This document shows, in pieces, positions 1 through 22,584 of a stretch of 22,584 nt of DNA. Position numbers and translations under genes: made by a program. The stretch lies in IMG/VR virus record IMGVR_UViG_2740892449_000008, positions 1 to 22,584 of that record, one strand, 5' to 3'. The notes under the pieces are model-generated. The model ran no database searches. It was given only the letters and a program-made list of their open reading frames with translations, and had not been told where the DNA came from. The stretch comes from a virus (lineage: Duplodnaviria; Heunggongvirae; Uroviricota; Caudoviricetes). How positions within the stretch are numbered: the first letter of the stretch is position 1; every line of letters starts with the position of its first letter.

Positions 1-825
1 GTATGCGAGAAGACCGGCAACATCCTTTCCACTCAAATTAGTCAGCGTCTCATCCAGTGGCTGCTTACCTGACAGCGCATTGTTAATGGTGGTACTGAAT
101 TTCGGGTCATTGTTAATGGCTGCGGCAATTTCTTTCAGTGTGTCCAGCGTGGCTGGCGCGCCGTTAATCAGAGCGGTAATAGCGGCCTGTACAAACGCAG
201 TGGTCGCAATCCGCGTGGTGTTATTTCCTGCGGCAGGCGTCGGCGCTTTTGGTTCTCCGGTAAATGTCGGATTATGTTTCTGCGCATACTGGGTATGAGG
301 ATCCTGTGCGACAATGTGGTTTCTCATCTGGTCATCCACATACAGCCTTAATTCCAGGACTTCATCATCCACGTATTTACGGGTCGCCAGTACCACCGAC
401 GGGTCGATTTTCAGCGTGATGGCTTCGGTATTCGTGACAACCAGAATCATGCGGATAGTCTGGGTACGACCACTGCCTTCCTGCAACTGCGGTTTGTACG
501 TTTCCGGGCAGTTCGCCACCGCAATGAGTACGCCTTCATCATCATAAAGCCCAATCTCACGGATCCAGAATCCGCCCTCGTTCTCAGGGATGATTTGCTC
601 CGCAATAATCTGGCTCTGGTTGTTCGGGTCAACACTCAGAAGATTCAGCGGCGCGATGCGTTTCTGGTTAATCAGTTTTGTCTGTGCCGGGTCTGGTGTC
701 GGCAAGACACCATTCGCATCACCAACGGCCATTTGCGTCAGATTCAGCTTACTGCCGAGCATCGTCGCGTTAGCCAGCCGTGCTGCGCCCTGATTAGTCA
801 GAATGGCGTAGTATTTCACTGTCAT
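1..825 (-). CDS. H: Tail fibre protein H, N-terminal ~275 aa only (gene continues past window start)
   Basis: ATG at 825..823; minus-strand frame stays open to position 1 (checked at 360 and 60). Translation MTVKYYAILTNQGAARLANAT...GGFWIREIGLYDDEGVLIAVAN resembles the conserved N-terminus of P2-type tail fibres. Not in the ORF track because no stop lies within the window. Confidence 0.8.
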   Translation of the reverse strand, partial: MTVKYYAILTNQGAARLANATMLGSKLNLTQMAVGDANGVLPTPDPAQTKLINQKRIAPLNLLSVDPNNQSQIIAEQIIPENEGGFWIREIGLYDDEGVLIAVANCPETYKPQLQEGSGRTQTIRMILVVTNTEAITLKIDPSVVLATRKYVDDEVLELRLYVDDQMRNHIVAQDPHTQYAQKHNPTFTGEPKAPTPAAGNNTTRIATTAFVQAAITALINGAPATLDTLKEIAAAINNDPKFSTTINNALSGKQPLDETLTNLSGKDVAGLLAY

Positions 826-847
826 GCGTTTACTCTCAGGTTATCAA

Positions 848-1431
848 TTAAATGAATGGCCGAGGCCGGGAAATAATCCCTCCGACAATAATGGCCTCCG
901 GGGTGTAGGGATAAACCGTCAGGGCGTCACCGTGATAGCATCCCGCACCGGCAAAAATGTTGCCGGTTGTACTTAAACTGATAGCCAGTCCCGTCAGATG
1001 GCGGCTTGCCGGTTTTGCATCAGCAACGAGGCGCTCCAGCTCCTGATACATTTCCTCGGTAATACCCTGCTCAAGCACGCCAACAACGATGCGGAACGTC
1101 CCCGGCTCCTCGTTGAGTTGCCACCACTCCCTCACCTCAATCAGATAGCCGAGCGGCTCCACCACACGCCGGATTGCGCCTATAGTGCCCTTATGGCAGT
1201 GAATGAAATACGCATCGCGGATAACAGCGCGTTTTGTCGCTTCCGGCCACTTATCATCCAGCGGTCAACCGAAAATGACCACGCCAGCCACGGCAGCAGA
1301 TTTGCCGGACAGGTATCCGGGTTCCACAGCTCACGAATACTGACCGGCGTTTTTTCAATTTCCGCACAGGCTTTTGCGGCGGCGACTTCAAGCGGTGATG
1401 AGCCAGTCGGCAGCAGTCGCGAATCACTCAT
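848..1431 (-). pseudogene. I: Baseplate protein I, interrupted by a -1 frameshift near 1257
   Basis: ORFs 1180..1431 (MSDSRLLPTGSSPLEVAAAK...SFSVDRW) and 848..1165 (VEPLGYLIEV...) are the two halves of a P2 gpI-like protein in different frames. Inserting one C into plus-strand 'atccag' (to 'atcccag') restores the recalled DRWDDKWPEATKRAVIRDAYFIHCHKGTIGAIRRVVEPLGY. Confidence 0.8.
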
Positions 1432-2332
1432 CCGAGCCTCCGGTCACGACGCTGTATTCGGTACAGAAAGACGCCTGCGTATTGTTGAGCACGATGTCGG
1501 CCAGCGGTGCAGCCAGTTCGACACGCTGCACGCCTTCCACATGCAAAGCGGCATAAATGGCAGACAGACGGATGTCGCGCCCAAGCCGGTGCTGTGCCGT
1601 GATGTACGCTTCCAGTTTTTTCACGGCAGCAGCGCGGATGGGTTCGCTTTCGGGACCTGGGTAAAGGTAAAGCGTGGCGTTTATCTGATATTCAACAATG
1701 GCGGCAGACTGCACGGTCACGCGGTCGGCCACCGGCCTGACGTCCTCGCCATTAAGGGCGTTACGCACCACGGCCAGCAGGTCTTCGGATGCGACGCCGT
1801 TATTTTCACGTGACAGCACGGAGATAGTGACGCAGGCCGGAGACGGACTGGTGACAGAGATATCCGCGACACGCCCGTCGGCACTGCGGCCATGATACTG
1901 ATAGGCACCCACCGACCCGGCGACGCTTAAACCTTCAAACGCCTGCTGAATACGCAGACGATAATCGGTGTCAGATTCCATCACTGCCGGTGTCGGCGGA
2001 ATGGTCGAATCATCTTCCGGGGTGATAATCAGGCGCGTGGTGTTGTAATTGGCACCAATCACATCAAGGTCATTACCGGCTGCACAGGCCAGCATCACCG
2101 CCCGTGCAGCCTCATTCACACGCTGACGCCAGATAAGCTCACGATAAGCATTTTCCTCCAGCAGTTTGACGAGAGGCTCAGATTCCAGCGTCAGGGTACG
2201 GGCGACCGCCTCCTGCTGGTCTTCCGGGTAAAGGGAAATCAGTGTCGCCTTGCGTTCGGCGAGAATGGTTTCAAAGTCCAGCTCCTCAACCACATCCGGT
2301 GCGGGTAGCTGGTTCAGGTCGATAATCGGCAT
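1424..2332 (-). CDS. J: Baseplate assembly protein J
   Basis: 302-aa intact ORF (MPIIDLNQLPAPDVVEELDFETILAERKA...) matching recalled P2 gpJ in length and sequence; 8-nt overlap with I. Confidence 0.9.
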   Translation of the reverse strand: MPIIDLNQLPAPDVVEELDFETILAERKATLISLYPEDQQEAVARTLTLESEPLVKLLEENAYRELIWRQRVNEAARAVMLACAAGNDLDVIGANYNTTRLIITPEDDSTIPPTPAVMESDTDYRLRIQQAFEGLSVAGSVGAYQYHGRSADGRVADISVTSPSPACVTISVLSRENNGVASEDLLAVVRNALNGEDVRPVADRVTVQSAAIVEYQINATLYLYPGPESEPIRAAAVKKLEAYITAQHRLGRDIRLSAIYAALHVEGVQRVELAAPLADIVLNNTQASFCTEYSVVTGGSDE

Positions 2333-2336
2333 GGTT

Positions 2337-2684
2337 TCAACTCACAGGGATGGTTAACGAAAGTGGCTGGCCGGTGTCGTTGTGCTGACCGGTTAATGTG
2401 ACCGTCATTCGCCCGTCAAAACTGCGCTCAGTGGTGACGGATGACAGGGTGACGCGGGGTTCCCATTTCAGCACCGCCATGTAACAGGCAACCTTAATCT
2501 GCAACTCAAGCGCCGGGGTCTGCGGCTGGTCAATCATTGACGCCAGCAACGAGCCGTAATCACGACGCATCACCCGTGAGCCGACCGGTGTGCGCAGGAT
2601 ATCGCCGATACTCTGGCTGATATGCTCAAGGTCAGTGACAGTCAGGCCATCACTGCGATTCATTCCAAGATAACGCGCTGTCAT
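2337..2684 (-). CDS. W: Baseplate wedge protein W (gp25/GPW family)
   Basis: 115-aa ORF (MTARYLGMNRSDGLTVTDLEHISQSIGDILRTPVGSRVMRRDYGS...) in the P2 gpW position between J and V. Confidence 0.9.
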   Translation of the reverse strand: MTARYLGMNRSDGLTVTDLEHISQSIGDILRTPVGSRVMRRDYGSLLASMIDQPQTPALELQIKVACYMAVLKWEPRVTLSSVTTERSFDGRMTVTLTGQHNDTGQPLSLTIPVS

Positions 2685-3316
2685 AGAGGACTCCCGGTTG
2701 TGCCGCCGCTGTCGCCGGGGTGTTTATGGGTATGCAGTACTTTACCGTTTGATGAGAGTTCACCGCCGGTGTGTTCAATGTTGCCGCGCATCGTCCCGCC
2801 CTTCTGCACTTCCAGCGTGCCGGTAATCAGCCTGTTGGTGCAGACCACCTCTGGTGTGTCCAGGGTGACGCGGGTTGATGCTTTCACCGTGACCACCGGC
2901 ACCGTGGCAGTAACAGAATCAGAAGCCGTCACGCTGGCCGTTTTAATTCCGCTTACCGTGAGTGCACTGGTTTCGGGTTCATACTCAATCACCGCCCCGT
3001 CAGGGAAACGGATATGCAGGGCATCCGCCGACGCAGACGGCGCGGGGTTATCACCGGAATAAATCCCCGGCAGAACGAACGCCGTGTCGAGTTCACCGCC
3101 CACGGCCAGAATCAGCACCTGTTCCCCCACGGAAGGTGCCCACCATGTGCGCGAACGTCCGGCACGATGGGTCAGCCACTGAAGCCAGTCGGTGCACATG
3201 CCGCCGGTCTGCACACGGCAGCGACTGGCGTTAAGGTCGGTTTCGACGATAATGCCGGGGCGTATCATGTTGCGCAGCGTGCGCGCGAGTTCCTGGATAT
3301 TTGCGAGTGTTTTCAT
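2681..3316 (-). CDS. V: Baseplate spike / tail assembly protein V
   Basis: Track ORF 2681..3352 begins at a TTG; the ATG at 3316 gives MKTLANIQELARTLRNMIRPGIIVETDLNASRCRVQTGG... which matches recalled P2 gpV. Overlaps W by 4 nt. Confidence 0.9.
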   Translation of the reverse strand: MKTLANIQELARTLRNMIRPGIIVETDLNASRCRVQTGGMCTDWLQWLTHRAGRSRTWWAPSVGEQVLILAVGGELDTAFVLPGIYSGDNPAPSASADALHIRFPDGAVIEYEPETSALTVSGIKTASVTASDSVTATVPVVTVKASTRVTLDTPEVVCTNRLITGTLEVQKGGTMRGNIEHTGGELSSNGKVLHTHKHPGDSGGTTGSPL

Positions 3317-3373
3317 AAGATCTAGCATGCTGCTGAGAACTGATGAGAACAATAAAAGAGTGTTTTTCTAAGG

Positions 3374-3406
3374 TTGACACAACACTCCATTTGAAGTGAA
3401 TATAAT
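3374..3406 (+). promoter_or_regulatory. Possible promoter hexamers upstream of the RelA/SpoT-like ORF (TTGACA 3374-3379, TATAAT 3401-3406)
   Basis: Both consensus hexamers are present in the AT-rich V/ORF intergenic region, but the spacer is 21 bp, which is non-canonical for sigma70. Confidence 0.25.
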
Positions 3407-3449
3407 GATTACTTAACTGGCAAAAAAACATCCTCACTAATTGGAGCCA

Positions 3450-4541
3450 ATGGATACACGCATGTCAGACATTCTAATTACTTATGATGAACGGAAAGAT
3501 AAATTTGAATCCTATGCCCTTACTCTTAAATCGTTATTAACCACGTTAATTCGCAATGAAAAAATTTCAATTCACTCACTAGAATCAAGAGTTAAAACAA
3601 AAAAAAGCCTTGAAGGCAAGATTAATAAAAAGGGAAAATACAAGTCTATAGATGATATTACTGATATCGTTGGTATCAGGATCATCACACATTATGCTGA
3701 TGATGTTGATAAGATAGCTGCTATAGTTGAAAAGGAGTTCACCATTGACCAAGAGAACTCTATTGATAAAAGAACCTCAATTGCGCCTGATAAATTTGGT
3801 TACTTATCACTTCATTATATAGTAACTTTAAGCTCAACCAGAACAAACTTAAAAGAATATGAAGTATATAAAAACATCAAAGCCGAATTACAAATACGAT
3901 CAATCCTTCAGCATGCCTGGGCGGAAATTGAACACGACATTGGTTATAAGTCGGCCACAGGACTGCCTAATGAAATAAGAAGATACTTTTCACGCTTAGC
4001 TGGTCTTTTAGAAATGGCCGATGATGAATTTATTAAAATCAGAAAAAAGATTTCTGAACGGCAGAAAGAGGTTGCAAAAGAACTAGAGCAAGGAACTAGT
4101 GATTCAGCTTTAGATATTTTCACTTTGGATGAATTCTTAAACACAAGTCGAATTATGAGTGAACTTTCAGAAGAGATAAAAGAAAAAACAGGAATCACAG
4201 TACATGGCCGATACAAGGATAAAGATTTGGGATACCTACTAAATAGTTTAAAGCTAGCCAACATAACTACAATAGAACAGCTCAATCAAAAACTCTCACA
4301 AATGAAAAAGCAGATCGTAGAGAGAATATTCTGCTTCGGAGAACTATTTATTGATTATTGCAGAGAAACCCCCATGCCAAAAGAAGTTCTTTTGAGTTAT
4401 TTATGTCAAATTATCGTTGCGTTTCAAAACTCACCTTCGTTAGAATCTGAATTTAATAACAAAGCAGGTTTAAATCTGAAAAACAGCGATATCTCCGATT
4501 TTTTCTCGAATATAAGAGAAAACATAAGCACACAACCTTAG
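3450..4541 (+). CDS. RelA/SpoT-homologue synthetase-fold nucleotidyltransferase with uncharacterised C-terminal domain; candidate fused toxSAS (CapRel-like) defence protein
   Basis: Intact ORF (track 3441..4541 from TTG; ATG at 3450 or 3462). Motifs seen: RVKTKKSLEGK, DDITDIVGIRII (D-x-x-G-x-R), AELQIRSILQHAWAEIEHD (E-x-Q-I-R...H-x-W-A-E-x-E-H), which together are the RelA_SpoT synthetase signature. No hydrolase domain and no adjacent small ORF. Strongly AT-rich, and opposite in orientation to the flanking tail genes. Confidence 0.75.
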   Translation: MDTRMSDILITYDERKDKFESYALTLKSLLTTLIRNEKISIHSLESRVKTKKSLEGKINKKGKYKSIDDITDIVGIRIITHYADDVDKIAAIVEKEFTIDQENSIDKRTSIAPDKFGYLSLHYIVTLSSTRTNLKEYEVYKNIKAELQIRSILQHAWAEIEHDIGYKSATGLPNEIRRYFSRLAGLLEMADDEFIKIRKKISERQKEVAKELEQGTSDSALDIFTLDEFLNTSRIMSELSEEIKEKTGITVHGRYKDKDLGYLLNSLKLANITTIEQLNQKLSQMKKQIVERIFCFGELFIDYCRETPMPKEVLLSYLCQIIVAFQNSPSLESEFNNKAGLNLKNSDISDFFSNIRENISTQP

Positions 4542-4570
4542 CTTTAGTTTTAAAGTATTCTAACAGAAGA

Positions 4571-4596
4571 CTGCTGCCGATAAGCACCGGCAGCAG
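4571..4596. terminator. Hairpin between the convergent RelA/SpoT-like ORF and gene S (possible bidirectional terminator)
   Basis: Perfect 9-bp inverted repeat ctgctgccg / cggcagcag with an 8-nt loop. The minus-strand side is followed by a moderately T-rich tract; the plus-strand side has no U-run. Confidence 0.35.
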
Positions 4597-4621
4597 CGAT
4601 GAGGTGTCGGGAATGGCACAA

Positions 4622-5074
4622 CTAACGATCGAGGTGAGTCAGGATAATCTCTTCAATCATCTGCACATCCTCACCGGTAAAGCCGAGCAGAGGACGCGCC
4701 GGATAATCAATTTTCTTACCGTCTTTCCGGTTTTCTTCCGACAGACCAAACTGATGCACACTGGCGATTTTCGGCGACTTCCCGCCGTAAAATTCCATTG
4801 ATGCCTGCTCCGGGCTGGCACGGATATGCAAAAAACGACTGGTGATAAGTTTCGCAAACATTTTTCGCTTAACGCGACCGGTCTTTTTTCTGGCGCTCTG
4901 CTGCTGGCGTGGTGCGTAGGGTGTGCCGTCCGGGGCTTTCTGTACCATCACCCGGCGCTGCTGACTCTGCCGCAGACGTTTCGCCAGTTCGGCACTCAGT
5001 CGCCGACGCCCTGACGGTGACAGCGATTCAATAAGTCCGGTCAGCCGGTCTTCAAAACGCTTAAACTCATTCAT
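4622..5074 (-). CDS. S: Tail completion protein S
   Basis: 150-aa ORF (MNEFKRFEDRLTGLIESLSPSGRRRLSAELAKRLRQSQQRR...) matching P2 gpS length and recalled sequence. Confidence 0.9.
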   Translation of the reverse strand: MNEFKRFEDRLTGLIESLSPSGRRRLSAELAKRLRQSQQRRVMVQKAPDGTPYAPRQQQSARKKTGRVKRKMFAKLITSRFLHIRASPEQASMEFYGGKSPKIASVHQFGLSEENRKDGKKIDYPARPLLGFTGEDVQMIEEIILTHLDR

Positions 5075-5534
5075 CCCACTTGCTCACCAGTTCGCCATTG
5101 ATATAAAGCTCCACCGGGCGGGTGACCGGCTCCGGCGGCGGAGGTTCCGGGATATTCTTCACATGCAGTGCGCCATCCACCTCACTGACCAGCGTGCGCT
5201 CGGTCAGCATCAGGCTGATGCTGATATCAAAGCTGCTGTCATTGTTGATGTCCGCATAAAACGTGAAGCCCTTTTTCTGGCCTTCGTCGGTGGTCATGAT
5301 GTCGGGCTGATTTTCCCGCAGCCACGCCAGCACCGGCACGATGAGCAGGTCAAAATCACCGGTAAAGTCGGTCACAATGACATTGAGCGTGTAACGCTTT
5401 TCAAATGACAGCGACGTCGCCAGTGTGGAGGCAATACTCCCGTTATCCACGAATATCCGCAGCATCTCGGGACTGGTTTTCAGCACCGTGACGGCATCAG
5501 TCAGCGCCCTGCGCAGGCTGTCGGGTTTGAGCAT
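5067..5534 (-). CDS. R: Tail completion protein R
   Basis: 155-aa ORF (MLKPDSLRRALTDAVTVLKTSPEMLRIFVDNGSIASTLATSL...) matching P2 gpR; 8-nt overlap with S. Confidence 0.9.
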   Translation of the reverse strand: MLKPDSLRRALTDAVTVLKTSPEMLRIFVDNGSIASTLATSLSFEKRYTLNVIVTDFTGDFDLLIVPVLAWLRENQPDIMTTDEGQKKGFTFYADINNDSSFDISISLMLTERTLVSEVDGALHVKNIPEPPPPEPVTRPVELYINGELVSKWDE

Positions 5535-5787
5535 CGTTTTCGTCCTGACAGTGTTTAATCATTTTTACCTGGCTGGCACAGCGTGCCAGCGCGTTCTCAA
5601 GCTGCCGGATATCGGCACTTAAATCGCCGTTCGTCTGCGGGTCACTGCCCGGCATCGGGCAAAGGCTCACTTTCGGGCAGGCGTTGGCGACAATCACTGG
5701 CGTCAGTGCAGGCCGGGCGCTGGTGCAACCGGCGCACAGCATCAGGCAGGTCAGCGCCGTACCAGCGGCGAAAATCTTCGTTTTCAT
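5497..5787 (-). CDS. lysC: LysC, Rz1-like outer-membrane lipoprotein spanin
   Basis: From the internal ATG: MKTKIFAAGTALTCLMLCAGC..., a signal peptide with a lipobox-like LCAGC and a proline-rich short protein (96 aa). It overlaps the lysB 3' end in another frame, as in P2. Confidence 0.65.
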   Translation of the reverse strand: MKTKIFAAGTALTCLMLCAGCTSARPALTPVIVANACPKVSLCPMPGSDPQTNGDLSADIRQLENALARCASQVKMIKHCQDENDAQTRQPAQGAD

Positions 5788-6067
5788 TAAGTAACCTCGT
5801 GATGGTTTTCTCGCGCTGTGCTTCACGCTTCGCGGCGTTCTCCAGTTCCTGACGCAGTGCTACCTGCGCCAGCTCGTTTTTGTCTGCCCTGGTGAGGGCA
5901 ACATGAAGCTGATTTTTCAGCATGGTGATGGTCGTCTGCTGCCCGCTGGCGACGTTGCTCGCCCTGTCCAGTGAGGTGCGCAGGCTGGCGTTTTCATGCT
6001 TCGTCAGAAACAGACCGGCCACCGCCAGTGATAACAACACAACCAGCACAATCATCAGCTTTGACAT
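5642..6067 (-). CDS. lysB: LysB, Rz-like inner-membrane spanin
   Basis: 141-aa ORF with an N-terminal transmembrane segment (MSKLMIVLVVLLSLAVAGLFL) followed by a charged, coiled-coil-like region; position after lysA. Confidence 0.8.
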   Translation of the reverse strand: MSKLMIVLVVLLSLAVAGLFLTKHENASLRTSLDRASNVASGQQTTITMLKNQLHVALTRADKNELAQVALRQELENAAKREAQREKTITRLLNENEDFRRWYGADLPDAVRRLHQRPACTDASDCRQRLPESEPLPDAGQ

Positions 6068-6480: not shown

Positions 6481-6494
6481 GGTGTTTACTCCGT

Positions 6495-6990
6495 TTAAGC
6501 CGGTACGCCGCCGGCGGTACGCCAGACGGTGACCAGTTTTTCCAGTGAATGCTCACGCTGACCGTAACCGGCACCCGGCAGGGACGCCAGATATTGCGAC
6601 AGCGTGAAATGGCGCGCTCAATGCGTCCCGCCGGATGTCATCCAGCGCACCGCGTTCGCGGATCAACTGAATGGCGAGTCTGTCCTGTGACAACGGACTG
6701 AAATCCGGCAGGGCAAGCTGTTTGCGGTAATGCGGCCAGAAAAGGTAAAGCTGCTGATAGCGACCGGAGGCCGTGGATTTTTCACCGCGACGGTTAAACA
6801 CCTTCGCCGGTCGGCCATGCGCGAACGGGTGGTCACTGTAGTCGGTGAAGATTTCCGGCTTCCCGTCCAGTCCGGTGACTATCACGTCATAGCCCCGGTT
6901 TTTCGTCAGCGGGTGATTCGCCGTCCCTTCGGACACGGCCAGCATGTCGAGAAAGGCAGCGATATTCTGATGCGTGTTAATTTCCGGCAT
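6495..6990 (-). pseudogene. K: Endolysin K (lysozyme), C-terminus disrupted by two -1 frameshifts (near 6633 and 6588)
   Basis: ORF 6553..6990 matches recalled P2 gpK through ...LIRERGALDDIR and then diverges. Inserting one G at each of two GG(G)CG sites (minus-strand sense) restores ...AGRIERAISRCRNIWASLPGAGYGQREHSLEKLVTVWRTAGGVPA and a stop at about 6495. Confidence 0.8.
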
Positions 6991-7271: not shown

Positions 7272-7274
7272 GCG

Positions 7275-7987: not shown

Positions 7988-8086
7988 GACTACCTCTGAA
8001 AAGTCGGGCGGTGGACGCCGGTGTAGTGTCAGGTGATTCACCCTCACTGACCGGCGTGCCGCCCTGGCGCGGGGCGCATTCGGTTG

Positions 8087-8829
8087 TTAACTGGCTTTCT
8101 TTTTCGGGCGTCCACGTTTTGCCGGTGTCACGCTCCGGGTCTTACGCGTGGCACGGGTGGCCGCTTTGGGTTGCGGCTCCGGCTTCGGTTTCAGCTCCCG
8201 CTCCAGTCGTTCAATCTCTTTTTTGACGCCTGCCTGACAGTCGAGCTGTGTCGCACGTTGCAGGTGAGCCAGCGCACCGGCGGCATCACCACCGTCACGC
8301 AGAAACAGACCGGTGATTTTGTGCAGCTTTGCGCGCACTTCATCAGGCATGTCAGCCGTGGCGGTCAGTTCGAGGGTCTCCGTCAGCAGGCGGGGATCCA
8401 CAGACTCACCGGCAGCGTGGGCGCGCATGGCCGCGAGCGCCACCTCCTCGGTGAACATGTACGGCGGGGTGCGGCGGTGTTTACCCGGCATGGTCAGACC
8501 GTACTTCAGGCATAACGGGCAATCTCCAGCGCACCGGCAATATCGCCGGTATCCAGACGCCACAGCATGACCGTCATCAGAATGTCATCCTGTGCACCTT
8601 TGCCCTGCTCCAGCACGCCGTTCACCCACGGCAACCAGAACGGCAGCAGTTCGCGTTTTTTCGCGGCCTTCAGCTCTTTTGAATAAATCGCTTTCAGTGT
8701 GCGCTGGTCTGCGGCGAGCTTAACCAGCATCTGCTCATAGACAGTTGCATGTCGCAGTGGGGCGGCTTCCCGCTGCGCGGTCATCGCTGCCGAGACCCGC
8801 ATCATGTGGCGCTGTGCGGGACTCGTCAT
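8087..8829 (-). pseudogene. M: Terminase small (endonuclease) subunit M, split by a -1 frameshift near 8508
   Basis: ORF 8506..8829 (MTSPAQRHMMRVSAAMTAQREAAPLRH...EIARYA*) and ORF 8087..8563 (...LKYGLTMPGKHRRTPPYMFTEEVALAAMRAHAAGESVD...) are adjacent halves of a P2 gpM-like protein. Inserting one G into plus-strand 'cttcaggcat' restores ARYALKYGLTMPGK. Confidence 0.85.
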
Positions 8830-8832
8830 CGG

Positions 8833-9906: not shown

Positions 9907-9978
9907 AGTTTTTCCTGAAATTAAGGGTTAATCGTGAAGGTTTTCCCGGACTGACTGACGCCGGTCAGCAGTTCGTCA

Positions 9979-12764: not shown

Positions 12765-13796
12765 TGAGCAAGAAAAAAGGGAAAACACCGCAACCTGCGG
12801 CAAAAACAATGACCGCCAGCGCCCCGAAAATGGAGGCATTCACCTTTGGCGAGCCGGTGCCGGTACTCGACCGCCGTGACATTCTGGATTACGTCGAGTG
12901 CATCAGTAACGGCAGATGGTATGAGCCGCCGGTCAGCTTTACCGGTCTGGCAAAAAGCTGCGTGCTGCCGTGCATCACAGCTCGCCGATTTACGTCAAAC
13001 GTAATATTCTGGCCTCGACATTTATCCCGCATCCGTGGCTTTCCCAGCAGGATTTCAGCCGCTTTGTGCTGGATTTTCTGGTGTTCGGTAATGCGTTTCT
13101 GGAAAAGCGTTACAGCACCACCGGCAAGGTCATCAGACTGGAAACCTCACCGGCAAAATATACCCGCCGTGGCGTGGAGGAGGATGTTTACTGGTGGGTG
13201 CCTTCCTTCAACGAGCCGACAGCCTTCGCACCCGGCTCCGTGTTTCACCTGCTGGAGCCGGATATTAATCAGGAGCTGTACGGCCTGCCGGAATATCTCA
13301 GCGCCCTTAATTCTGCCTGGCTGAATGAGTCGGCCACGCTGTTCCGCCGCAAGTATTACGAAAATGGCGCACATGCCGGATACATCATGTACGTTACCGA
13401 TGCCGTGCAGGATCGCAACGATATCGAAATGCTTCGCGAAAACATGGTCAAGTCGAAAGGCCGCAACAACTTTAAAAACCTGTTTCTCTATGCCCACAGG
13501 GGAAAGCCGACGGCATTAAAATTATCCCGCTCAGTGAAGTGGCAACGAAGGACGATTTTTTTAATATCAAAAAAGCCAGCGCCGCAGACCTGCTGGACGC
13601 GCACCGCATCCCTTTTCAGTTGATGGGCGGCAAGCCGGAGAACGTCGGGTCGCTGGGTGATATTGAGAAAGTGGCAAAGGTCTTTGTCCGCAATGAGCTT
13701 ATCCCGTTACAGGACAGGATCCGCGAGATAAACGGCTGGCTCGGCCAGGAGGTCATCCGCTTTAAAAACTACTCACTGGACACTGACAACGGCTGA
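12764..13796 (+). pseudogene. Q: Portal protein Q, interrupted by two -1 frameshifts (near 12959 and 13496)
   Basis: Three successive frames (12764.., 12970.., 13539..13796) together give a P2 gpQ-like protein. Inserting one C in 'aaagctgcg' and one C in 'tgcccacag' restores ...LAKSLRAAVHHSSPIYVKR... and ...LYAPQGKADGIKIIPLSEVATKDDFFN.... Confidence 0.85.
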
Positions 13797-13801
13797 ACAT
13801 C

Positions 13802-13965: not shown

Positions 13966-13984
13966 GTGCTATCCCCGCCTCGCC
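13966..13984. other. cos cohesive-end sequence (P2-type 19-mer), internal to the prophage
   Basis: The minus-strand reading of 13966-13984 is GGCGAGGCGGGGATAGCAC, one mismatch from the recalled P2 cohesive end GGCGAGGCGGGGAAAGCAC. It lies next to Q, as in P2. Confidence 0.6.
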
Positions 13985-14101
13985 CGCCCGCTTAATGGGG
14001 CGGTTTTAATGCGGGTGCATAACCACTTCTTACCCACATCAATTCTGGTCAAGCCAAGCAGTACAGCTTATGATTTCAAGATGCAAACTCATGCAGCAAT
14101 G

Positions 14102-15231
14102 TTAAATTCTGCATCCATCGGTTTGAAAATGTGATCCGTTTTTCGAATTCAAACTCAACTCTGTTTGACTCTTTTGAACATTAATAGTTTTACCAGTAAG
14201 GACATCCAAAACCCCTGCAGCAACAGCCTGCGCCAATTTACAAGGCACAGCATTCCCTATCTGACGCCAAATTGACGAATTTTTCCCCACAAAGACATAA
14301 TTACTCGGGAATGTTTGAATCAAAAGAGCCTCATCTATCGTTAGTCGACGTAAACGACTAGGTACATCGTGCATATCTTTTGGCTCACCACCATTCATTA
14401 GATGATTATGATAAGTCTCAACATAACTTGTTGAGCCATCATAAAGGTGTTCTTCATCAATAATTGGTGTCCTATTCCCCCCATAGAAGCAGCTATAGTT
14501 GAAGCATACCCATTCGGGTTAATTGGTCTTCCCTGCCCGTTAAACATCATTCCCGCGTAAGGTGACTTCCGTAATACTGGCTTAGCAGCATTTGTAATCC
14601 TTGCATTACAGACTCTTGAATTGTTTGGATTACCCGCTCGCCCTAAAGGCCGAATAATCTCACCAACTGTGGGCGAAAGATATTGGTATTTTTTTATCGC
14701 CGCCTCAACTCGTTTCACATCATTTTCGGAACGAAACCCTATAAAAAACATACGTTCCCTATTCTGAGGAACGCCAAAATCTTTAGAATTCAGCACCAGC
14801 AAGGCTGAACGATAGCCTGACTTTTCAGCCATCTTAAACAGTTCACACCTAACTGGTTCAAATTTGGACAACTGTGCTAAAGCCTTAACATTCTCCATAA
14901 CAAAGCATTCTGGTTGAATTATATCCACCGCCCGCATGAATGACATAACCAGCTTACTACGTGGATCATGAGCGTCCATTTTCCCTGCCACAGAAAATCC
15001 TTGGCATGGAGGCCCACCAAAAACACAACCTATATTTTTCAGCCCAGACAATTCACTTAGCATCTCATCAATATCACCACAAAAAACAGGTGATTCATGA
15101 TTAAGCTTAAATGTATCACATGCATCCTTATCTATATCATTGGCCCAAACTGTTCGGAACCCGGCATTAGAGAAACCGACATCCATCCCTCCTGCCCCAG
15201 TAAATAAGCTCACCGCTGAAATTTTGTTCAC
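14102..15231 (-). pseudogene. DNA (cytosine-5) methyltransferase, -1 frameshift in a C6/G6 run at 14466-14471; start uncertain (GTG 15231 or TTG 15270/15294)
   Basis: C5-MTase motifs in order: LFTGAGGMDVGF (motif I), GGPPCQGFS (motif IV), MENVKAL (VI), QNRERMFFIG (VIII), then after the frame change RRLTIDEALLIQTFPSNYVF and QIGNAVP (IX/X). Adding one G to the ggggggaat run joins ORFs 14398..15294 and 14102..14398. AT-rich. Confidence 0.85.
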
Positions 15232-15314
15232 TTCTTTAGCACCAATTATTCGATTTTGGAATAAAACCAATGATAGGTAAGGATCGACACACAATCAATC
15301 ACCTTCTAAACCAC

Positions 15315-15584
15315 ATGGCAAAACGACAACCAACTATACATGATCATAGATACAGGTGCCTAGTCCAGCTTCTCACCAAACTACGCAAAGAAGCTTCTCT
15401 TTCGCAGTCAGAATTGGCCATTTTTCTAGGATTATCACAATCAGATATATCTAAAATCGAAAGCTTTGAAAGGCGATTAGATGCTTTAGAACTATTTGAA
15501 TTATTAGAGGTGGTTGCAAGCCGATTAGGTCTACCAATGGATATCTTACTAAAGGACACCTATGAAAGTATTAGTAAATCATGA
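15315..15584 (+). CDS. Small HTH (XRE-type) regulator, likely R-M controller (C) protein
   Basis: About 89 aa from the ATG at 15315 (alternative ATG at 15270). Helix-turn-helix signature SLSQSELAIFLGLSQSDISKIE. Divergent from the MTase, and its 3' end overlaps the start of the next ORF by 23 nt. Confidence 0.65.
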   Translation: MAKRQPTIHDHRYRCLVQLLTKLRKEASLSQSELAIFLGLSQSDISKIESFERRLDALELFELLEVVASRLGLPMDILLKDTYESISKS

Positions 15585-16615
15585 GCAAGCCTATAATGTA
15601 ATTATAAATGCAATCAACGATGCAAAAAAATTAACTGATTACAAAACAAATAATCAATGGGTCTCCATTCAAAATGTAATTTTAGGCACCCACCTTACAT
15701 ACAGATATATACTTATTACTGGTTTACTTGCAAAAGCAACAGACCCTAGAGTAAACCCTCTGGCTTTACAAGCTAATGCCCCCGTAGACGGAGCCTATGA
15801 TGCAAGAAGTTTATGTCATTCGGTAATAGTAGCAAAGTAGAAGGCCCATATTTAGAGGGTAAGTTAGGCGCATCAAATGAGCCATTTCTAAATAAACCTG
15901 CTCGTTACATGCTCCACTCCTCTGATAACCCTGTGCGCAGAGGAAATGATAAGGTTTTACAACAACTTTCAATTGATATATTACATGCAGCAACAACCCA
16001 AACCTTAGCTTATGAAATGCTTGTTATTGCATTATATTTTACCCTACAGCGAACCAATAGAGTTATAACGCCGAACTCAATTAATTTTGATTTCCATAAG
16101 ATTATTTATAATATTATATCTCATCCTTGTGATGGAGAAACATGCGCGATTGCTGCCGCAATTTCGTTACATTTATTAGGTGAACAAAGAGGATGGATAA
16201 TAAAAGCACATCCCGTCAATCAGCCGGTAGCTCCTCAAAAGAGATACTGGACATAGATGTATATCATGACGATATAGTTTTCCTTTCTATAGAAGTGAAA
16301 GACAAACCATTTAATTATCAAGATGTTAATCACGCCGTTTCAAAAGCATCTGCATCCGGGATTTCAAAAGTTATCTTCCTTAAAGGGCCAAGAGCAACAA
16401 ACTTAGATATTGATGAGTCTCTTGCGATTGAGAACGCTGCGACAAAAGGTGTTTCACTAAGCTTTAGTGACGTCATGACATTCACAACAACATGTTATGC
16501 GTTATCGCCACTATTAAGTAATGACAGAATAATAGATTTCATAAATAACACTTTAAAAGACATCAGAGCTAAAGATAGCACTATAGAATACATACAATCC
16601 ATATTTAAAAATTAA
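15562..16615 (+). pseudogene. Putative type II restriction endonuclease (PD-(D/E)xK), read through two -1 frameshifts
   Basis: Three consecutive ORFs (15562..15840, 15813..16256, 16193..16615) in frames 0, -1 and -2 form one ~351-aa gene if two bases are restored. AAGGA SD 6 nt before the ATG at 15562. Candidate catalytic motif D-x7-E-V-K in DIVFLSIEVKDK. Context: C gene upstream, C5-MTase divergent. Confidence 0.5.
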
Positions 16616-16622
16616 TACTCCC

Positions 16623-16657
16623 GGGACAATATAGTTCACAACTACGTTGTCCCTTTT
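16623..16657. terminator. Hairpin plus T/A run between the convergent endonuclease ORF and gene A
   Basis: gggacaa (16623-16629) pairs with ttgtccc (16647-16653), followed by ttttaaaa; lies between the two convergent stop codons. Confidence 0.4.
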
Positions 16658-16708
16658 AAAACAGTCAAGCAATTGCATTATATTAATTATTTACTTTTTA
16701 TCACAATC

Positions 16709-18978
16709 TCATAATTCATACGCTCTCCAATCACATATAACAGGATAACTGAAGCTTCTCCCGTCGTAATTTACACTTGCCCCACGCGCCAGCGCCTCAA
16801 GCTCCCATCGCTGCGGCCTGATACCGTTCTGAGCAAGGTCAACGCGGATACGGGTGATTTGCAATCGTTCAGACCTGGTCAGTCTGGCCGATGGTGCTAT
16901 TTCATGTGGTTTTAACGGGCTTCCGTTTCTTTGCTGACGACTTGGCGTTCTCCGACCGTGTTTTAATGCACCCCTGAGCGCCCTCACGACCTCCGGGTCA
17001 TTCCATTCGATAACACCGTCATCAACCAGATTAAGCACTGCTGCGGCATGCTCAGAAGGTGTGGGAGCCGGTAACGAAGCATCACCACCGGTGAGCTTTC
17101 CACAGTTATTGACAGGACTCCGAGGCGCGGCGATGCCGCTTTTTAAAGTCAAAGGCTCAACGACCGGAACTTTCGGCACAATGCGCCAGTCCGTCGTTCT
17201 GGTGATATGAATATGACGCGCGCCGAGATGCGGCGCGTAAATGCCGACCACTCTCTCGACTTCTTCCTCGTACTCGTTAACGTCATCCGACGGGCTACGG
17301 GCGACCCTGACAGTCTGACAATCGCGCGGGACATTTGCCCCGCCCTGCGCGCTGATATACAACGCAAAATCACCACTGTCTGCAGCGGCGCGTGCAGCCT
17401 CGACGCGCTCGTCAAACTCATCAGCAATGCTGACGCCGCGCGGCAATTTGCGTAGTTCACGGTAAGCCCCCATTGTCGGCAGGCCAACCGTTTTAAATTG
17501 CGGGATGCGCCACGTTGACGCCCATGCGGTAACAGCCGCTGCAGTGTCTTTCAGCGGCCTGCCGGTGTCGTTATCGAGCTGACCATCCAGTGCATAGCCG
17601 TCGATGTTTTTTGAAATGTATTTCGCGATATATCCCGCAGCACCGCCCCGGTTAAGGTGTTTTGCCTGAAAACGGTTTCGCGCAGCTCCTCTTTCGTCTC
17701 CATCCTCTTTGAGCGCGTAGCGACGCATGATTTCGATAATCTGGTTACGCTGGCGCGAATTACAAAAAAGCATTATATGCCAGTGCGGCGTTCCGTCGTG
17801 GTGTGGCTCGACGACACGCAAACCGTAGACCTGTAAATCATTATCCTTGAATGCCGTGCGCATCAGGCTCCAGATACGGCAGAGATAACGCTGCGCATCC
17901 TTTGGATTAAATGCCTCATCGTTCCAGCCGTGATTTAGCTGGACGGTTTTACTTTCGCCTTTTCCAACCTGACGTGTCGGGTGATACTTTGACGGCGCGG
18001 TCAGCGTGATAAACATCCCCACATCACCCTCTGCTGCGGCGTAACGCTCAATACCGGCAATGGTGTTCATCAGCTCCATCCGGCGAATTTCAGGATTAGA
18101 AATACTGCCCATCACCTTACTGATAAGGTCGATGCGCTCGCCGGTTTCCCTGTTTTCGAGATCACACGATTTAAGAAATTCCAGATTTGCCTGGCGGCGT
18201 GCACGCACATCACGAATGGCATGTTTACTGGCATAAGGAGAACGGTCTTTATTGACCTCCCCGACAGCAATCAGTAACGCCTCATGCCAGCGCATACGCT
18301 GGCCTTTAAGCTGATGAGTCCACCACTCATCGTTAAACAGACGGGCAATGGCAGAATATGCCTGCCTCGTGGTCATCTGTCCTTTACGGTATTTTTTCCA
18401 GTAGAGAGGGGAAATATTGAAAGCACGTGCAGCGCCAGCAACATGACCATACAGGTGAGCCTGCGCCTCATCCGTAAACAGCGATTCTTTTTCGCCATGC
18501 GCATCCACCCAGGCATCGCAGAGTTCCTCATACATCATGAAAAGCTGCGATGAGATACGGGCGGCAAACTTTTTCAGCTCCTTGTCATTCATTCCAGGCA
18601 GGCGCGCATAGTGGTCACGCTCTGCCAGAAACAGCAACGACGCGTCGGTGTTCATTTCATGGCGCTGATTCACACGCTCAATACGCGGCCATAAACGACG
18701 CTGAAAAGTGGATGTGAGGAAATAAAACCCGTGTACCGGACTTTTATTGCGCCGGATGTAGTCATAGCGTGAAGTAAACAGCGAGCGCAAAAAGTAAGGC
18801 AGGCGGTTAATCGTGGATAAAACACCTTGCACCTGACGCATCTCGTCACGTGTAAGAGGTCTTTCTCGCCCGACGGCCTCGCGTGGCGCGTTCCATGCAT
18901 AAGCACCGGTAAACGTCTCACCGGTGCCTGCGGCAAATGCTGACGGAGGGACAAAACGCCCGGAGCTTTAACGGCCAT
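16709..18978 (-). pseudogene. A: Replication initiation protein A (rolling-circle nickase), -1 frameshift about 20 nt after the start codon
   Basis: ORF 16709..18841 (MRQVQGVLSTINRLPYFLRSLFTSRYDYIRRNKSPVHGFYF...) matches recalled P2 gpA from residue ~47 onwards. The ATG at 18978 reads MAVKAPG and then the frame slips; inserting one base in 'gctccggg' restores MAVKASGRFVPPSAFAAGTGETFTGAYAWNAPREAVGRERPLTRDEMRQ. Confidence 0.85.
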
Positions 18979-19990: not shown

Positions 19991-20053
19991 GACTTTCTCC
20001 AGGCAAAAAGAAGCCCCGCACGATTAAGTGCGTTAAAAACTCTGGTTAATTAC

Positions 20054-20554
20054 TTAATGCAGATATTGCTCTGGTTTTACCGACGTCAGAATTGTCGGTG
20101 CATACTCAAACAGACTGAATAATTCACGTAATGCACGGAATAAAGCATCACGCCAGTAACATGATTCCTCATTAATTCGCCAGTATGGCTGGTTAAATTC
20201 TTTTTCAGTCAATCCGGCATGCATAAATAAAGTGCGACGCTGACTGACTGTTAAAAAACTAATATATGCATACTCACTTGCGCCAACCTGACGGCGTTTT
20301 GAGAATGCCCCACGCAATTCATCAATTGCACAAACCAGCCGTTCACGTTCGACGTCGTTCATTTCTTCAAAACGCATCGTTGCGTGACGTTGTTTTAACT
20401 GCGCATGAAAGCAAACTGTTAGCCGTTCGCGCTCCATCATCTGATTATAATAATCACATGTATCCTGCCAGCGAGGGACGGCAAGATGCTTACCAATTAT
20501 CCGGCGCATAGCTGCTGGCTGTTTTTCGACGAGATTGAGCGTCATCGCTGTCAT
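20054..20554 (-). CDS. B: Replication protein B (helicase-loader-like)
   Basis: From the internal ATG: MTAMTLNLVEKQPAAMRRIIGKHLAVPRWQDTCDYYNQMMERERL..., 166 aa, matching recalled P2 gpB in length and position. Confidence 0.75.
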   Translation of the reverse strand: MTAMTLNLVEKQPAAMRRIIGKHLAVPRWQDTCDYYNQMMERERLTVCFHAQLKQRHATMRFEEMNDVERERLVCAIDELRGAFSKRRQVGASEYAYISFLTVSQRRTLFMHAGLTEKEFNQPYWRINEESCYWRDALFRALRELFSLFEYAPTILTSVKPEQYLH

Positions 20555-20787
20555 TTCCATACCCTCCGGCTTTTCAGAAAGGTCAGAGCCTTTTTTAACG
20601 GACTCTGTTTTTTGGTGCGGATAATGATTCCCTTGCGTCCCTTCCCGTGGGTGATGGTGAAGTCAATCGCCCTGGGGCTTTCGTTACGCAATAACTGAGC
20701 AATACAACGAGGCTCGTTCATCCTTTCCTCCTTAAGCCGCACGGCCATGTCTTGATTTGCTGTAACTAATGCGATTTTTCCAGTCAT
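20551..20787 (-). CDS. Hypothetical small protein (P2 orf78 position)
   Basis: 78 aa from the internal ATG (MTGKIALVTANQDMAVRLKEERMNEPRCIAQLL...); stop overlaps the B start. Its 5' end overlaps the 3' end of the Cox ORF by about 56 nt in another frame. Confidence 0.45.
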   Translation of the reverse strand: MTGKIALVTANQDMAVRLKEERMNEPRCIAQLLRNESPRAIDFTITHGKGRKGIIIRTKKQSPLKKALTFLKSRRVWK

Positions 20788-21103
20788 GCCATTCTGTCGG
20801 AGCTTCATCAACCAGTTGGGCTGCGTACTTGTCCCACTCACGGCGATTAATCCATAATTCAGCTTTCCCTCTTGGTTTTAATGGGTCTGTCATGTAGAAG
20901 GCTGGCAGCTTTCCTGCTTTAGCCATTTCAGCCACCGCGCGTGGTGTCTTACCGATGTAAAGAGCAAAACCTTCTTTCGACAGCAAATCAGATGGGCGCT
21001 CTGAAATCTGAATGCTTTTACGTTTGGCTTCATTTTCGAAACTTGCCTCATCGCTAGTTGGACAAGAAATTTCTACATTTGTCGTCACTTTGCTATCCTC
21101 CAT
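20732..21103 (-). CDS. cox: Cox-like excisionase / lysogenic-promoter repressor
   Basis: Contains GKLPAFYMTDPLKPRGKAELWINRREWDKYAAQL, resembling the recalled P2 Cox core (KGKLPVIYMTDP). Divergent from C. The ORF from ATG 21103 is 123 aa, longer than P2 Cox (91 aa). Confidence 0.7.
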   Translation of the reverse strand: MEDSKVTTNVEISCPTSDEASFENEAKRKSIQISERPSDLLSKEGFALYIGKTPRAVAEMAKAGKLPAFYMTDPLKPRGKAELWINRREWDKYAAQLVDEAPTEWHDWKNRISYSKSRHGRAA

Positions 21104-21196
21104 AAGATTTGCGATTCACCAACTGGAGCCATCTAGAGCCTTTTTGAGTGAATCACAAATTGCCAAGTAGCAATATAATTGGAGATTAGCAAAATT
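21104..21196. promoter_or_regulatory. Divergent cox/C switch region with imperfect inverted repeat and candidate -10 hexamer
   Basis: GATTCAC (21113-21119) and GTGAATC (21148-21154) form a 9/10 inverted repeat. TATAAT at 21174-21179 precedes C, but the nearest -35-like TTGCCA (21160-21165) is only 8 bp away, so promoter geometry is unresolved. Confidence 0.45.
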
Positions 21197-21496
21197 ATGT
21201 CAAGTGAACAAAGTGAGAAACTAAAGCTCATCCGTGAATCCGAACGCCTTAAAACTAAGGAACTTGCTGAATTAATTGGAATTAATTACTACACATATCA
21301 TGGATATGAATCAGGAAAATCAAAAATGCCTATGGAAGCAGGTATGAAGCTGTTTAAGCATCCACGCTTTCGCAAGTATCGTGACTGGTTCATGTTTGAT
21401 GAAACAGATCCAGCAGCTGGACAAATAGCCCCGGCTCTCGCACACATTGGGCAAGACTCAACAACCTTGCACCACTCAGACCAGAAGACTGGCTGA
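21197..21496 (+). CDS. C: Immunity repressor C
   Basis: 99 aa from the ATG at 21197 (MSSEQSEKLKLIRESERLKTKELAELIGINYYTYHGYESGKS...); C-terminus GQIAPALAHIGQDSTTLHHSDQKTG matches recalled P2 C. GGAG lies 12 nt upstream. Confidence 0.85.
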   Translation: MSSEQSEKLKLIRESERLKTKELAELIGINYYTYHGYESGKSKMPMEAGMKLFKHPRFRKYRDWFMFDETDPAAGQIAPALAHIGQDSTTLHHSDQKTG

Positions 21497-21589
21497 CGAT
21501 TTATTCAGCATATGTGTGTAGTAAATGTACGAAAGAAAATTGCATTAATTTTCAAGTAGTAGAAGTAAACAGCGTCATCGGAGGGCTTT

Positions 21590-22584
21590 ATGTCTATTAA
21601 AAAGCTCGATGATGGTCGTTATGAAGTGGACGTCAGACCGCAGGGTGCAGATGGAAAACGTATCAGGCGGAAATTTAAAACTAAAGGTGAAGCTCAGGCA
21701 TTCGAACGTCATGTACTGGTTAACTACCACAACAAAGAGTGGTTGGAGAAACCAGCCGACCGCCGAACTCTTACAGAGTTGTTAGGTAGATGGTGGATAT
21801 ATCACGGAAAATCACATGAGCGTGGAGATATTGAACGGGGCGTTTAACGACAATAATCGCCAAATTTGCAGAAATGGGAGTGTCCAGAGCTGACCAGCTA
21901 ACAAAGAAAACGATAACTGATTATCGCGTTGTAATGATGAACGATGGTCTAAAACCAGCCAGCGTAAATCGACATCTGGCAATAATGAGCGGGATGTTCA
22001 CCAAGTTAATTGACGCCGGTGAATACCACTCCCACAACCCGTTCCGTGAGATTAAACGGTTACGTGAAGCTGTTACGGAAATGGCTTTTTTGTCCAGTGA
22101 AGAGATTACGCGGCTGTTATCCATGCTTGATGGTGATGAGTTAAATGCAACTCTGGTCTGCCTTTCTACTGGTGGACGCTGGAGTGAAGTGTCTAATTTG
22201 AAAGCTGAACACATCATTAACCAGATGGTTACGTTTATGAAAACTAAAAACGGAAAGCGCAGGACAATTCCCGTTTCGCAGGACCTGATTAAACGGATCA
22301 AGACCAAAAATTCAGGCAGGCTTTTTAATGCCAGTTACTACAAAGTGCGCAACGCTCTCAGGGAAGTAAAACCCGATTTACCTGACGGACAGGCAGTGCA
22401 TGTTTTGAGGCATACATTTGCCACACATTTTATAATGAATGGAGGTAACATAATCACATTGCAGCGCATCCTGGGTCATTCTAACATTCAGCAAACTATG
22501 ACCTACGCACACTTTGCACCGGATTTCTTACAAGATGCTGTGACTCTTAACCCGGTGTCAGGAATGTCCATAATGCGTCCATAA
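21590..22584 (+). pseudogene. int: Tyrosine integrase, -1 frameshift in a G-run near 21835-21838; stop codon is the last 3 bases of the window
   Basis: N-terminal ORF MSIKKLDDGRYEVDVRPQGADGKRIRRKFKTKGEAQAFERHV... resembles recalled P2 Int. The C-terminal ORF has the tyrosine-recombinase catalytic motifs (...HVLRHTFATHFIMNGGNIITLQRILGHSNIQQTMTYAHF...). One extra G in 'acggggcg' joins them. GGAGGG SD before the ATG. Confidence 0.85.

Follow-up and report, generated by a model that had tools for sequence, protein, structure and literature searches.

Which genes fill the accessory slots of a P2-like prophage, and do they amount to barriers against other phages? The question is raised here by the IMG/VR virus record IMGVR_UViG_2740892449_000008, whose positions 1 to 22,584 (the window, meaning that whole stretch of DNA) carry a P2-like prophage with one insertion between the late genes S and V and another between the cohesive-end site cos and gene A. 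The original prediction, made from the letters alone, took the first insertion for a RelA/SpoT-like (RSH) gene and probable abortive-infection toxin and the second for a restriction-modification (R-M) module, and regarded the two as unrelated defence modules in exchangeable slots. On balance, and with rather more confidence than doubt, we favour a reading in which two horizontally acquired cargos of low guanine-cytosine (GC) content, an R-M system under a controller (C) protein and an RSH, are lodged in gaps between the transcription units of a P2-like prophage, and in which the single-base deletions that interrupt several genes are artefacts.

The window is an ordinary Escherichia coli P2-family (Peduovirus) prophage that runs from H to int, and its architecture and hotspot organization leave us in very little doubt on this point. 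In a megablast comparison with 50,697 phage records, the Peduovirus genomes pro483, S164, D8 and P2 align at 97-98% identity across 75-82% of the window, and the parts without such coverage are two low-GC islands (~3.5-4.5 kb, GC 0.34, and ~14.0-17.0 kb, GC 0.36-0.43) set in a backbone of GC 0.51-0.64; at the DNA level neither cargo was found among these deposited phage genomes, and there are no tRNA genes in the window. The closest sequence found, at 99.85% identity, is a prophage of E. coli O39:H21 (NZ_CP062865.1). Transfer of its RefSeq annotation and comparison with the P2 reference (NC_001895) yield the gene order H (partial)-I-J-W-V, cargo, S-R-lysCBA-K-Y-X-L-M-N-O, P-Q, cos, cargo, A-orf83 to orf80-B-orf78-cox, C and int (Table 1), and the P2 cos sequence, GGCGAGGCGGGGAAAGCAC, is matched at 18 of its 19 bases at 13966-13984 (chance expectation, 0.01 matches). 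The one-to-one gene map with P2, the conserved module order and the high nucleotide identity together place the prophage in Peduovirus, and its second cargo lies where the gpA-gpQ hotspot is defined, between gpA and gpQ beside cos, and varies among otherwise similar phages. The predicted P2-like synteny from H through int, with an RSH between S and V and an R-M module between cos and A, is thus borne out by the gene map, the Peduovirus identity and cos. The statement that both accessory slots are filled holds for these two, which are two of the known slots, the third classical P2 slot, Z/fun (between G and FI), falling outside the window.

Within this conserved backbone the content of the two slots assorts independently. 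In a census of 5,426 complete E. coli genomes, ~1,500-1,570 of which have the flanking P2 genes, the R-M cargo occurs in 20 (~1,566 flank-bearing genomes) and the RSH cargo in 14, and only NZ_CP062865.1 holds both. A P2-like S/V junction is present in 1,572 genomes, of which 1,021 have it uninterrupted (it measures 66 bp in pro483), and alternative cargos at this position are a P2 orf30-like gene of 261 amino acids and an unrelated gene of 246 amino acids. Between cos and A, the place of the R-M cassette is taken by a DUF4238 gene in pro483, by retron Ec48 and a second reverse transcriptase in pro147, by a DUF7380 gene in S88 and by old/tin in P2. Combinations differ as well: S88 pairs the RSH with DUF7380, in a prophage whose end adjoins yegR rather than pflA/pflB, and strain 10 joins the R-M cassette to an empty S-V junction. 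Furthermore, a 2.7-kb tract of the window (2029-4730), which takes in W, V and the RSH together with the 3' ends of J and S, differs from a prophage of Escherichia sp. MOD1-EC7003 by 4 single-nucleotide polymorphisms (SNPs; 0.15%), against 2.3-2.6% in the backbone on either side; we read this as the trace of a recent event in which the RSH cassette was transferred by homologous recombination in its flanks. Both cassettes would travel between P2-like backbones by homologous recombination in such conserved flanks. The census, the alternative cargos, the independent assortment and the recombination tract uphold the view that P2-like accessory loci are exchangeable between conserved flanks, and the comparison of the two slots across related P2-like prophages, which had been set beforehand as a test, reveals the anticipated cargo turnover; the idea of exchangeable defence cassettes is accordingly supported, but it restates published knowledge.

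The S-V slot can be compared position by position with that of P2, whose reference order is S, the tO terminator, orf30, the pV activator site and V (and, at the other slot, A-orf91-tin-old-cos; NC_001895). In phages with an empty slot, GTTGTGCCATTCCCGACAC stands directly after the S stop codon, ~55 bp upstream of V; the window retains this sequence as an orphan copy beside S, close to a terminator-like hairpin, and has another activator-site-like motif in front of V (Table 1). This V-proximal motif, TGTTGTGTCAACC, is common to the P2 pO and pP promoters (TGTTGTGTCA; activator sites as annotated in NC_001895) and to other cargo-bearing alleles, and we infer that it represents the predicted pV of the window allele and that the S-V cassette may bring or keep its own pV. 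The cargo would then occupy a gap between transcription units, bounded by the O-operon terminator after S and by the pV of V. In its reverse complement, the V-proximal motif includes an exact TTGACA directed towards the RSH gene; a TATAAT follows after 21 nt, a spacing that is non-canonical, and we do not call this arrangement a promoter.

The gene found in this slot (GC 0.34) is oriented against the late genes, and its predicted RelA/SpoT-like identity is confirmed by a fold match and by Pfam RelA_SpoT, which covers residues 49-172 (1.8e-21). The protein is 97% identical to WP_001280130.1 of E. coli S88 and matches phrog_9640, a family of 'unknown function', over residues 1-359 against profile positions 4-365 of 365 (1.8e-195); the PADLOC candidate PDC-S33 is matched in part (2e-16, 58 bits), over positions 48-262 of 349, which represent the enzymatic core only. 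An AlphaFold (AF2) model based on 60 homologues (pLDDT 92) consists of a RelQ/RelP-like pyrophosphokinase domain (residues ~8-204) followed by a hypervariable, all-alpha domain (205-366). Invariant among the 60 homologues are R50, K52, K60, D75, R80, G120-Y121 (Tyr121 being the G-loop tyrosine), E149, Q151, R153, H158, W160, E162, E164 and H165, and both the synthetase fold and the catalytic residues are conserved as in RelQ/YjbM and RelP/YwaC. Mean identity to the homologues amounts to 64% in the N-terminal domain and 26% in the C-terminal one, and 8 of the 9 differences between the S88 and window alleles fall within the latter.

Sequence, profile and fold point to the same affiliation. With the RSH as query, phmmer returns RelQ/RelP as top matches (~1e-15) and no match to CapRel at E <= 0.01; a profile of the 60 homologues finds RelQ/RelP at 4e-18 to 1e-13 and CapRel at E 0.013; and in Foldseek the model aligns to RelQ/RelP (SAS1/SAS2; 5DEC, 6FGK, 6EWZ) with TM-scores of 0.72-0.79 and 25-28% identity, and to CapRel (7ZTB) with a TM-score of 0.40 (E 5e-6). 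Membership among the CapRel/PhRel toxic small alarmone synthetases (toxSAS) is ruled out at all three levels, and the C-terminal pseudo-zinc-finger of the CapRel type, a three-stranded beta-sheet, has no counterpart in the all-alpha C-terminal domain that is predicted here. A single-domain housekeeping RelQ/YjbM or RelP/YwaC (~210-230 amino acids) was likewise rejected, given the additional 160-residue domain and a score of 72.8 bits against the NCBIfam YjbM equivalog NF053588, whose cut-off is 320. The C-terminal domain itself has no structural match in the PDB or among viral structures, and a phmmer search of 1.84 billion representatives gave 6 matches, all of them fragments or proteins of 355-361 amino acids with the domain in the same C-terminal position; confined as it is to proteins of the same architecture, it gives no sign of being shared with other effectors.

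Is the RSH then a defence gene? That it serves against phages is plausible, and we place this just short of an even call, every statement on its function being read from sequence and predicted structure. A little more tentatively, we propose that the S-V cargo is a single-protein anti-phage system distinct from CapRel, which combines a RelQ/RelP-like effector with a family-specific, hypervariable, all-helical sensor. In such a system the C-terminal domain, as a regulator or sensor, would hold the enzyme inactive until a cue from the phage lifted this control; what the enzyme then makes, an alarmone ((p)ppGpp or (p)ppApp) or else pyrophosphorylated tRNA, would stop growth or translation and abort the infection. 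P2-like prophages of Klebsiella (55% identity) and Serratia (47%) carry RSH homologues in the same S-V slot and in the same orientation. A role in defence is also favoured by the invariant catalytic residues, by the faster evolution of the C-terminal domain and by a gene that stands alone: the 126 flanking ORFs (open reading frames) surveyed in 63 species include no conserved neighbour and represent 141 Pfam families, none of them seen more than 3 times. Elsewhere, a handful of homologues have defence-like neighbours, including a GajB-like helicase, a DRT-type reverse transcriptase, an AbiEii-type AAA_21 protein and a TOTE primase, and integrases also occur; one Bacillus homologue is found among Abi_C, McrB/HNH, RES and integrase genes, and one from Pseudomonas lies beside a 961-residue SMC_N/AAA protein. 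In the Serratia prophage, the slot, at 3856-5921 of the locus, holds three small genes (209, 254 and ~114-122 amino acids, without a Pfam match) along with the RSH homologue, which implies that it is able to accommodate multi-gene cargo.

Several observations weigh against a role in defence. Neighbouring genes are mostly housekeeping or miscellaneous and the defence enrichment is weak, in a survey based on crude ORF calling and judged without a matched background. The family extends to at least 578 species-level genomes from many phyla, mostly outside prophages, and only two of the best 80 loci are in P2-like slots. Its catalytic domain has its nearest counterparts among genuine (p)ppGpp synthetases, not among the known toxic enzymes, its C-terminal domain is seen only in proteins of the same architecture, and a simple sigma-70 scan finds no canonical promoter upstream of the gene. 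Literature searches, including those for PDC-S33 and WP_001280130, returned nothing on this RSH family. The description of the gene as a probable abortive-infection toxin is therefore not sustained: the RSH fails the tests for CapRel, is closest to RelQ/RelP of the housekeeping type and has neighbours that are weakly enriched in defence genes.

The main rival, which we consider unlikely yet ahead of the other alternatives, is that the RSH is a lysogenic-conversion gene, whose product, an accessory small alarmone synthetase, would increase the level of (p)ppGpp or of a related nucleotide and so alter host stress tolerance, persistence or virulence, or else tune the lysis-lysogeny physiology of the prophage. 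Bona fide (p)ppGpp synthetases, RelQ and RelP, are indeed its best matches in both sequence and structure, and a conversion gene would be in keeping with a family that is widespread in the chromosomes of many phyla, often by housekeeping genes, and that recurs in several species of one genus, Desulfosporosinus. The hypervariable C-terminal domain and the patchy presence (14 of 5,426 genomes), however, fit genes of biological conflict better; its repeated uptake into a phage moron slot in three different genera, occasional defence-island contexts and a score far from the YjbM equivalog cut-off (72.8 vs 320 bits) argue in the same direction. Should the anti-phage reading prove true, the S-V (orf30) slot would be a third defence hotspot in P2-like prophages of Escherichia, Klebsiella and Serratia, and alarmone or tRNA-pyrophosphorylation immunity would reach beyond the known toxSAS clades; the family (phrog_9640), with a CapRel-like domain logic and a new sensor domain, could thereby widen the repertoire of nucleotide-pyrophosphokinase immune effectors.

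The cargo of the cos-A slot is arranged in the way that is standard for type II R-M systems under a C protein, with a C5 cytosine methylase gene divergent from those of a helix-turn-helix (HTH) controller and a SacI-family endonuclease (Table 1). All three fragments of the endonuclease gene in the window match the RE_SacI profile (positions 4-86, 87-224 and 221-276 of 276), the methylase motifs FxGxG, PCQ, ENV, QxRxR and GNAVP are visible in the translations, and the stop of the C-protein gene overlaps the endonuclease start by 23 nt. In an intact relative, PADLOC models recover the endonuclease (REase_II, 7.8e-252) and the methylase (MTase_II, 2e-79), the control-protein models being matched weakly, and the methylase falls under NCBIfam TIGR00675 in the dcm superfamily; of the 20 E. 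coli genomes with the cassette, most have it intact, and FORC_082 shows two methylase features. As annotated, the methylase and C-protein genes, which diverge, share 25 bp at their 5' ends (15270-15294). The true starts probably lie further in (e.g., at Met16 of the C protein), leaving space for a shared regulatory region or C-box. By family, the methylase would shield host and prophage DNA, the C-R operon would hold back endonuclease expression upon entry into a new cell, and unmethylated incoming DNA would be cut, probably at GAGCTC, the likely target as judged from SacI family membership only; the activity of the system as a whole is putative. The window contains 0 GAGCTC sites where 3.9 are expected. 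We rejected this depletion as support for the specificity, since phages without this R-M system are equally poor in the site (0 in the 32.7 kb of pro147 and 1 in the 29 kb of pro483); the scarcity of GAGCTC is a property of the backbone that is not tied to the R-M cargo.

As written, however, the window encodes no intact methylase or endonuclease, which counts against a working barrier. It differs from NZ_CP062865.1 by 21 SNPs, 13 single-base deletions and an additional A, and the deletions break nine genes in total: the methylase (14482), the endonuclease (15832 and 16223) and seven backbone genes, namely I (880 and 1259), K (6588 and 6632), M (8510), O (9983), Q (12957 and 13495), A (18965) and int (21840). 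The methylase deletion (C7 to C6) splits the gene in two and sets motifs I-VIII apart from motif X (GNAVP), and the two in the endonuclease leave it in three frames. Of the 13 deletions, 12 fall within G/C runs that are 2 or more bases long, which make up 21.5% of positions (binomial P ~1e-7), and 8 in runs of at least 3 bases (5.3% of positions); all five that could be checked against the independent MOD1-EC7003 contig are found in the window only. Several of them read AGGC to AGC or CAGGGC to CAGGC. The extra A (A8 in the window, A7 in NZ_CP062865.1) restores the RSH frame, and S88 agrees with the window here. Because of the indel-to-SNP ratio of 13:21, the single direction of the changes (deletions only) and the homopolymer context, we hold the 13 deletions to be, very probably, uncorrected long-read consensus errors of the assembly rather than biology. 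Gene-level statements drawn from the window, whether of a functional R-M system or of a defective prophage, hinge on recognizing this homopolymer-deletion signature: if the deletions were real, both the R-M system and the prophage would be dead and the claim of two barriers would fail. The prediction that the prophage supplies DNA restriction is thus right as to the presence of R-M genes, whose frames are broken by 3 frameshifts, and holds only if these are sequencing errors, as is likely.

We regard it as improbable that the frameshifts are genuine and that the window represents a decaying, defective prophage in which the R-M genes, the portal, the terminase small subunit, the scaffold, the endolysin, I, A and the integrase are pseudogenes and only C immunity and the RSH still function. 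Decay is real in this lineage, which weighs against our preferred reading: the nearest relative, NZ_CP062865.1, is itself defective, with an ISCro1 element (IS66 family) in Q and the A7 frameshift in its RSH, and S88 has an IS21 element in its capsid gene and a frameshifted integrase; slipped-strand errors, too, favour homopolymers. But 13 deletions without a single insertion, 12 of them in short G/C runs (P ~1e-7), and an indel-to-SNP ratio far above what is usual for near-identical genomes speak for error, each affected ORF is otherwise identical to its intact relatives, and a broken methylase next to a twice-broken endonuclease would need an ordered loss. Defence pseudogenes, moreover, are rare (~2%) in P2-like prophages according to a recent survey. 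The ISCro1 element occupies 14084-17825 in NZ_CP062865.1, at a point that matches ~13528-13542 of the window, whose Q is free of it.

Type II R-M systems governed by C proteins count among the classic addiction modules, and single-ORF architectures of toxin and cis-inhibitor exist, CapRel being one. That both cargos are mainly selfish stabilization modules, the R-M system killing segregants after its loss and the RSH acting as a fused toxin-antitoxin, with phage exclusion as a side effect, is nonetheless more doubtful still, since an integrated prophage is not easily lost and has little to gain from stabilization, and the rapid swapping between backbones and the published phage protection by other cargos of the same hotspot favour defence.

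The features of the window are collected in Table 1. In NZ_CP062865.1 the prophage is inserted between pflA and pflB, which are normally adjacent, its two flanks being at 4462-5291 and 39446-42265, and 31 bp separate the stop codon of int from the start of pflA. Within terminase gene P, 8 of the 21 SNPs that separate the window from this relative fall within 270 bp (window 12275-12542), a cluster that suggests a small recombination patch. At the G-FI position, beyond H and outside the window, NZ_CP062865.1 has at 30892-33003 duplicated and inverted fragments of tail-fibre and tail-fibre assembly genes together with a recombinase (DNA invertase), which is an invertible host-range segment in place of defence cargo.

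Table 1. Features of the window, with position, strand and basis of each assignment (aa, amino acids).
Feature	Position	Strand	Basis
Tail-fibre gene gpH, 3' end beyond window start	1-825	-	NZ_CP062865.1 annotation
Baseplate gene I	822-1431	-	Annotation transfer; Pfam labels of homologous Klebsiella loci
Baseplate gene J	1424-2332	-	Annotation transfer; Pfam labels of homologous Klebsiella loci
Baseplate gene W	2337-2684	-	Annotation transfer; Pfam labels of homologous Klebsiella loci
Baseplate gene V	2681-3316	-	Annotation transfer; Pfam labels of homologous Klebsiella loci
Late-promoter activator-site-like motif TGTTGTGTCAACC, ~55-70 bp upstream of V start	3372-3384	-	Likeness to P2 pO/pP
RSH gene, single ORF, intact	3462-4541 (ATG, 359 aa); ORF opens at TTG 3441, 366 aa	+	Pfam RelA_SpoT
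Terminator-like 12-bp hairpin and T-rich tail, just after S	4570-4597	-	Position of P2 O-operon terminator (P2 9397-9433)
Orphan activator-site-like copy GTTGTGCCATTCCCGACAC, abutting S stop codon	4604-4622	-	Identical to pre-V sequence of empty-slot phages (pro483)
S (O-operon late gene)	4622-5074	-	Annotation transfer
R, lysC, lysB, lysA (O-operon late genes)		-	Annotation transfer
K (O-operon late gene)	6495-6990	-	Annotation transfer
Y, X, L (O-operon late genes)		-	Annotation transfer
M (O-operon late gene)	8087-8829	-	Annotation transfer
N (O-operon late gene)	8833-9906	-	Annotation transfer
O (O-operon late gene)	9965-10818	-	Annotation transfer
Terminase large subunit P	10992-12764	+	Pfam and annotation transfer
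Portal Q	12764-13796	+	Pfam and annotation transfer
cos cohesive-end sequence GGCGAGGCGGGGATAGCAC	13966-13984	-	1 mismatch to P2 cosL/cosR
C5 DNA cytosine methyltransferase, 397 aa if intact	14102-15294	-	Pfam DNA_methylase, 4e-51 and 2e-12 on two pieces
HTH controller (C) protein, 104 aa	15270-15584	+	Pfam HTH_3 1.8e-6; PADLOC Control_protein 2e-4, HTH_VI 3e-8
SacI-family type II restriction endonuclease, 351 aa if intact	15562-16615	+	Pfam RE_SacI
A (early operon)	16709-18978	-	Annotation transfer and P2
orf83/82/81/80 homologues, B, orf78 (early operon)		-	Annotation transfer and P2
cox (early operon)	20732-21103	-	Annotation transfer and P2
Immunity repressor C, 99 aa	21197-21496	+	Annotation transfer and P2
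Integrase, ending exactly at window end	21590-22584	+	Annotation transfer

Swappable defence cargo in a few fixed slots of P2-like prophages is established knowledge, and the window is one more example of it, in which the R-M cassette had been catalogued before and the RSH family is the one unexplored element. The gpA-gpQ hotspot was defined by Rousset et al. 2022 (PMC9122126), who assayed several cargos from it, no R-M cassette being among those they report testing, and found the DUF4238 cargo of pro483 to be protective against T7. The arrangement 'HTH + RE_SacI + DNA_methylase' is already listed for this hotspot in their Table S5A, where WP_134874246, the endonuclease of NZ_CP062865.1, is also present by accession. 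Old/tin and Z/fun are named as the two classical P2 hotspots in a 2024 preprint, and a 2026 preprint adds further P2 defence hotspots within late genes and reports several hotspots filled in 10% of P2 elements with complete defence systems, with very rapid swapping; compared with old/tin and Z/fun, the S-V slot is less explored.

The cos-A cargo resembles those of the gpA-gpQ (old/tin) hotspot in lying between Q/cos and A, in being variable and in its low GC content, and differs in nothing substantive beyond its interrupted R-M frames. As an R-M system it shares with the C-controlled type II systems of the SacI family a full-profile RE_SacI match, a C5 methylase and an HTH controller overlapping the endonuclease start, whereas its controller scores weakly against the PADLOC control-protein models (2e-4) and its frames are broken. 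The S-V cargo corresponds to the P2 orf30 locus, a non-essential gene on the opposite strand between the O-operon terminator and the pV activator site, but it is an RSH, and it has an orphan activator-like site by S in addition to a second one by V. With CapRel(SJ46) (Zhang et al. 2022, PMC9712102; 7ZTB) this RSH has in common a prophage-borne single ORF of ~360-370 amino acids, an N-terminal synthetase-type RSH domain with a conserved G-loop tyrosine and a C-terminal region that is the most variable part; it departs from it in its marginal profile similarity (E 0.013 vs 1e-18 for RelQ/RelP), in fold (TM-score 0.40 vs 0.77) and in a C-terminal domain predicted as all-alpha rather than as a beta-sheet pseudo-zinc-finger. 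RelQ/RelP (SAS1/SAS2; 5DEC, 6FGK, 6EWZ) provide the best match in sequence and fold, over RSH residues ~25-210 and with conserved catalytic motifs, and the RSH of the window is set apart from them by its extra 160-residue C-terminal domain, by a score far below the equivalog cut-off and by its mobile, patchy distribution in a phage slot.

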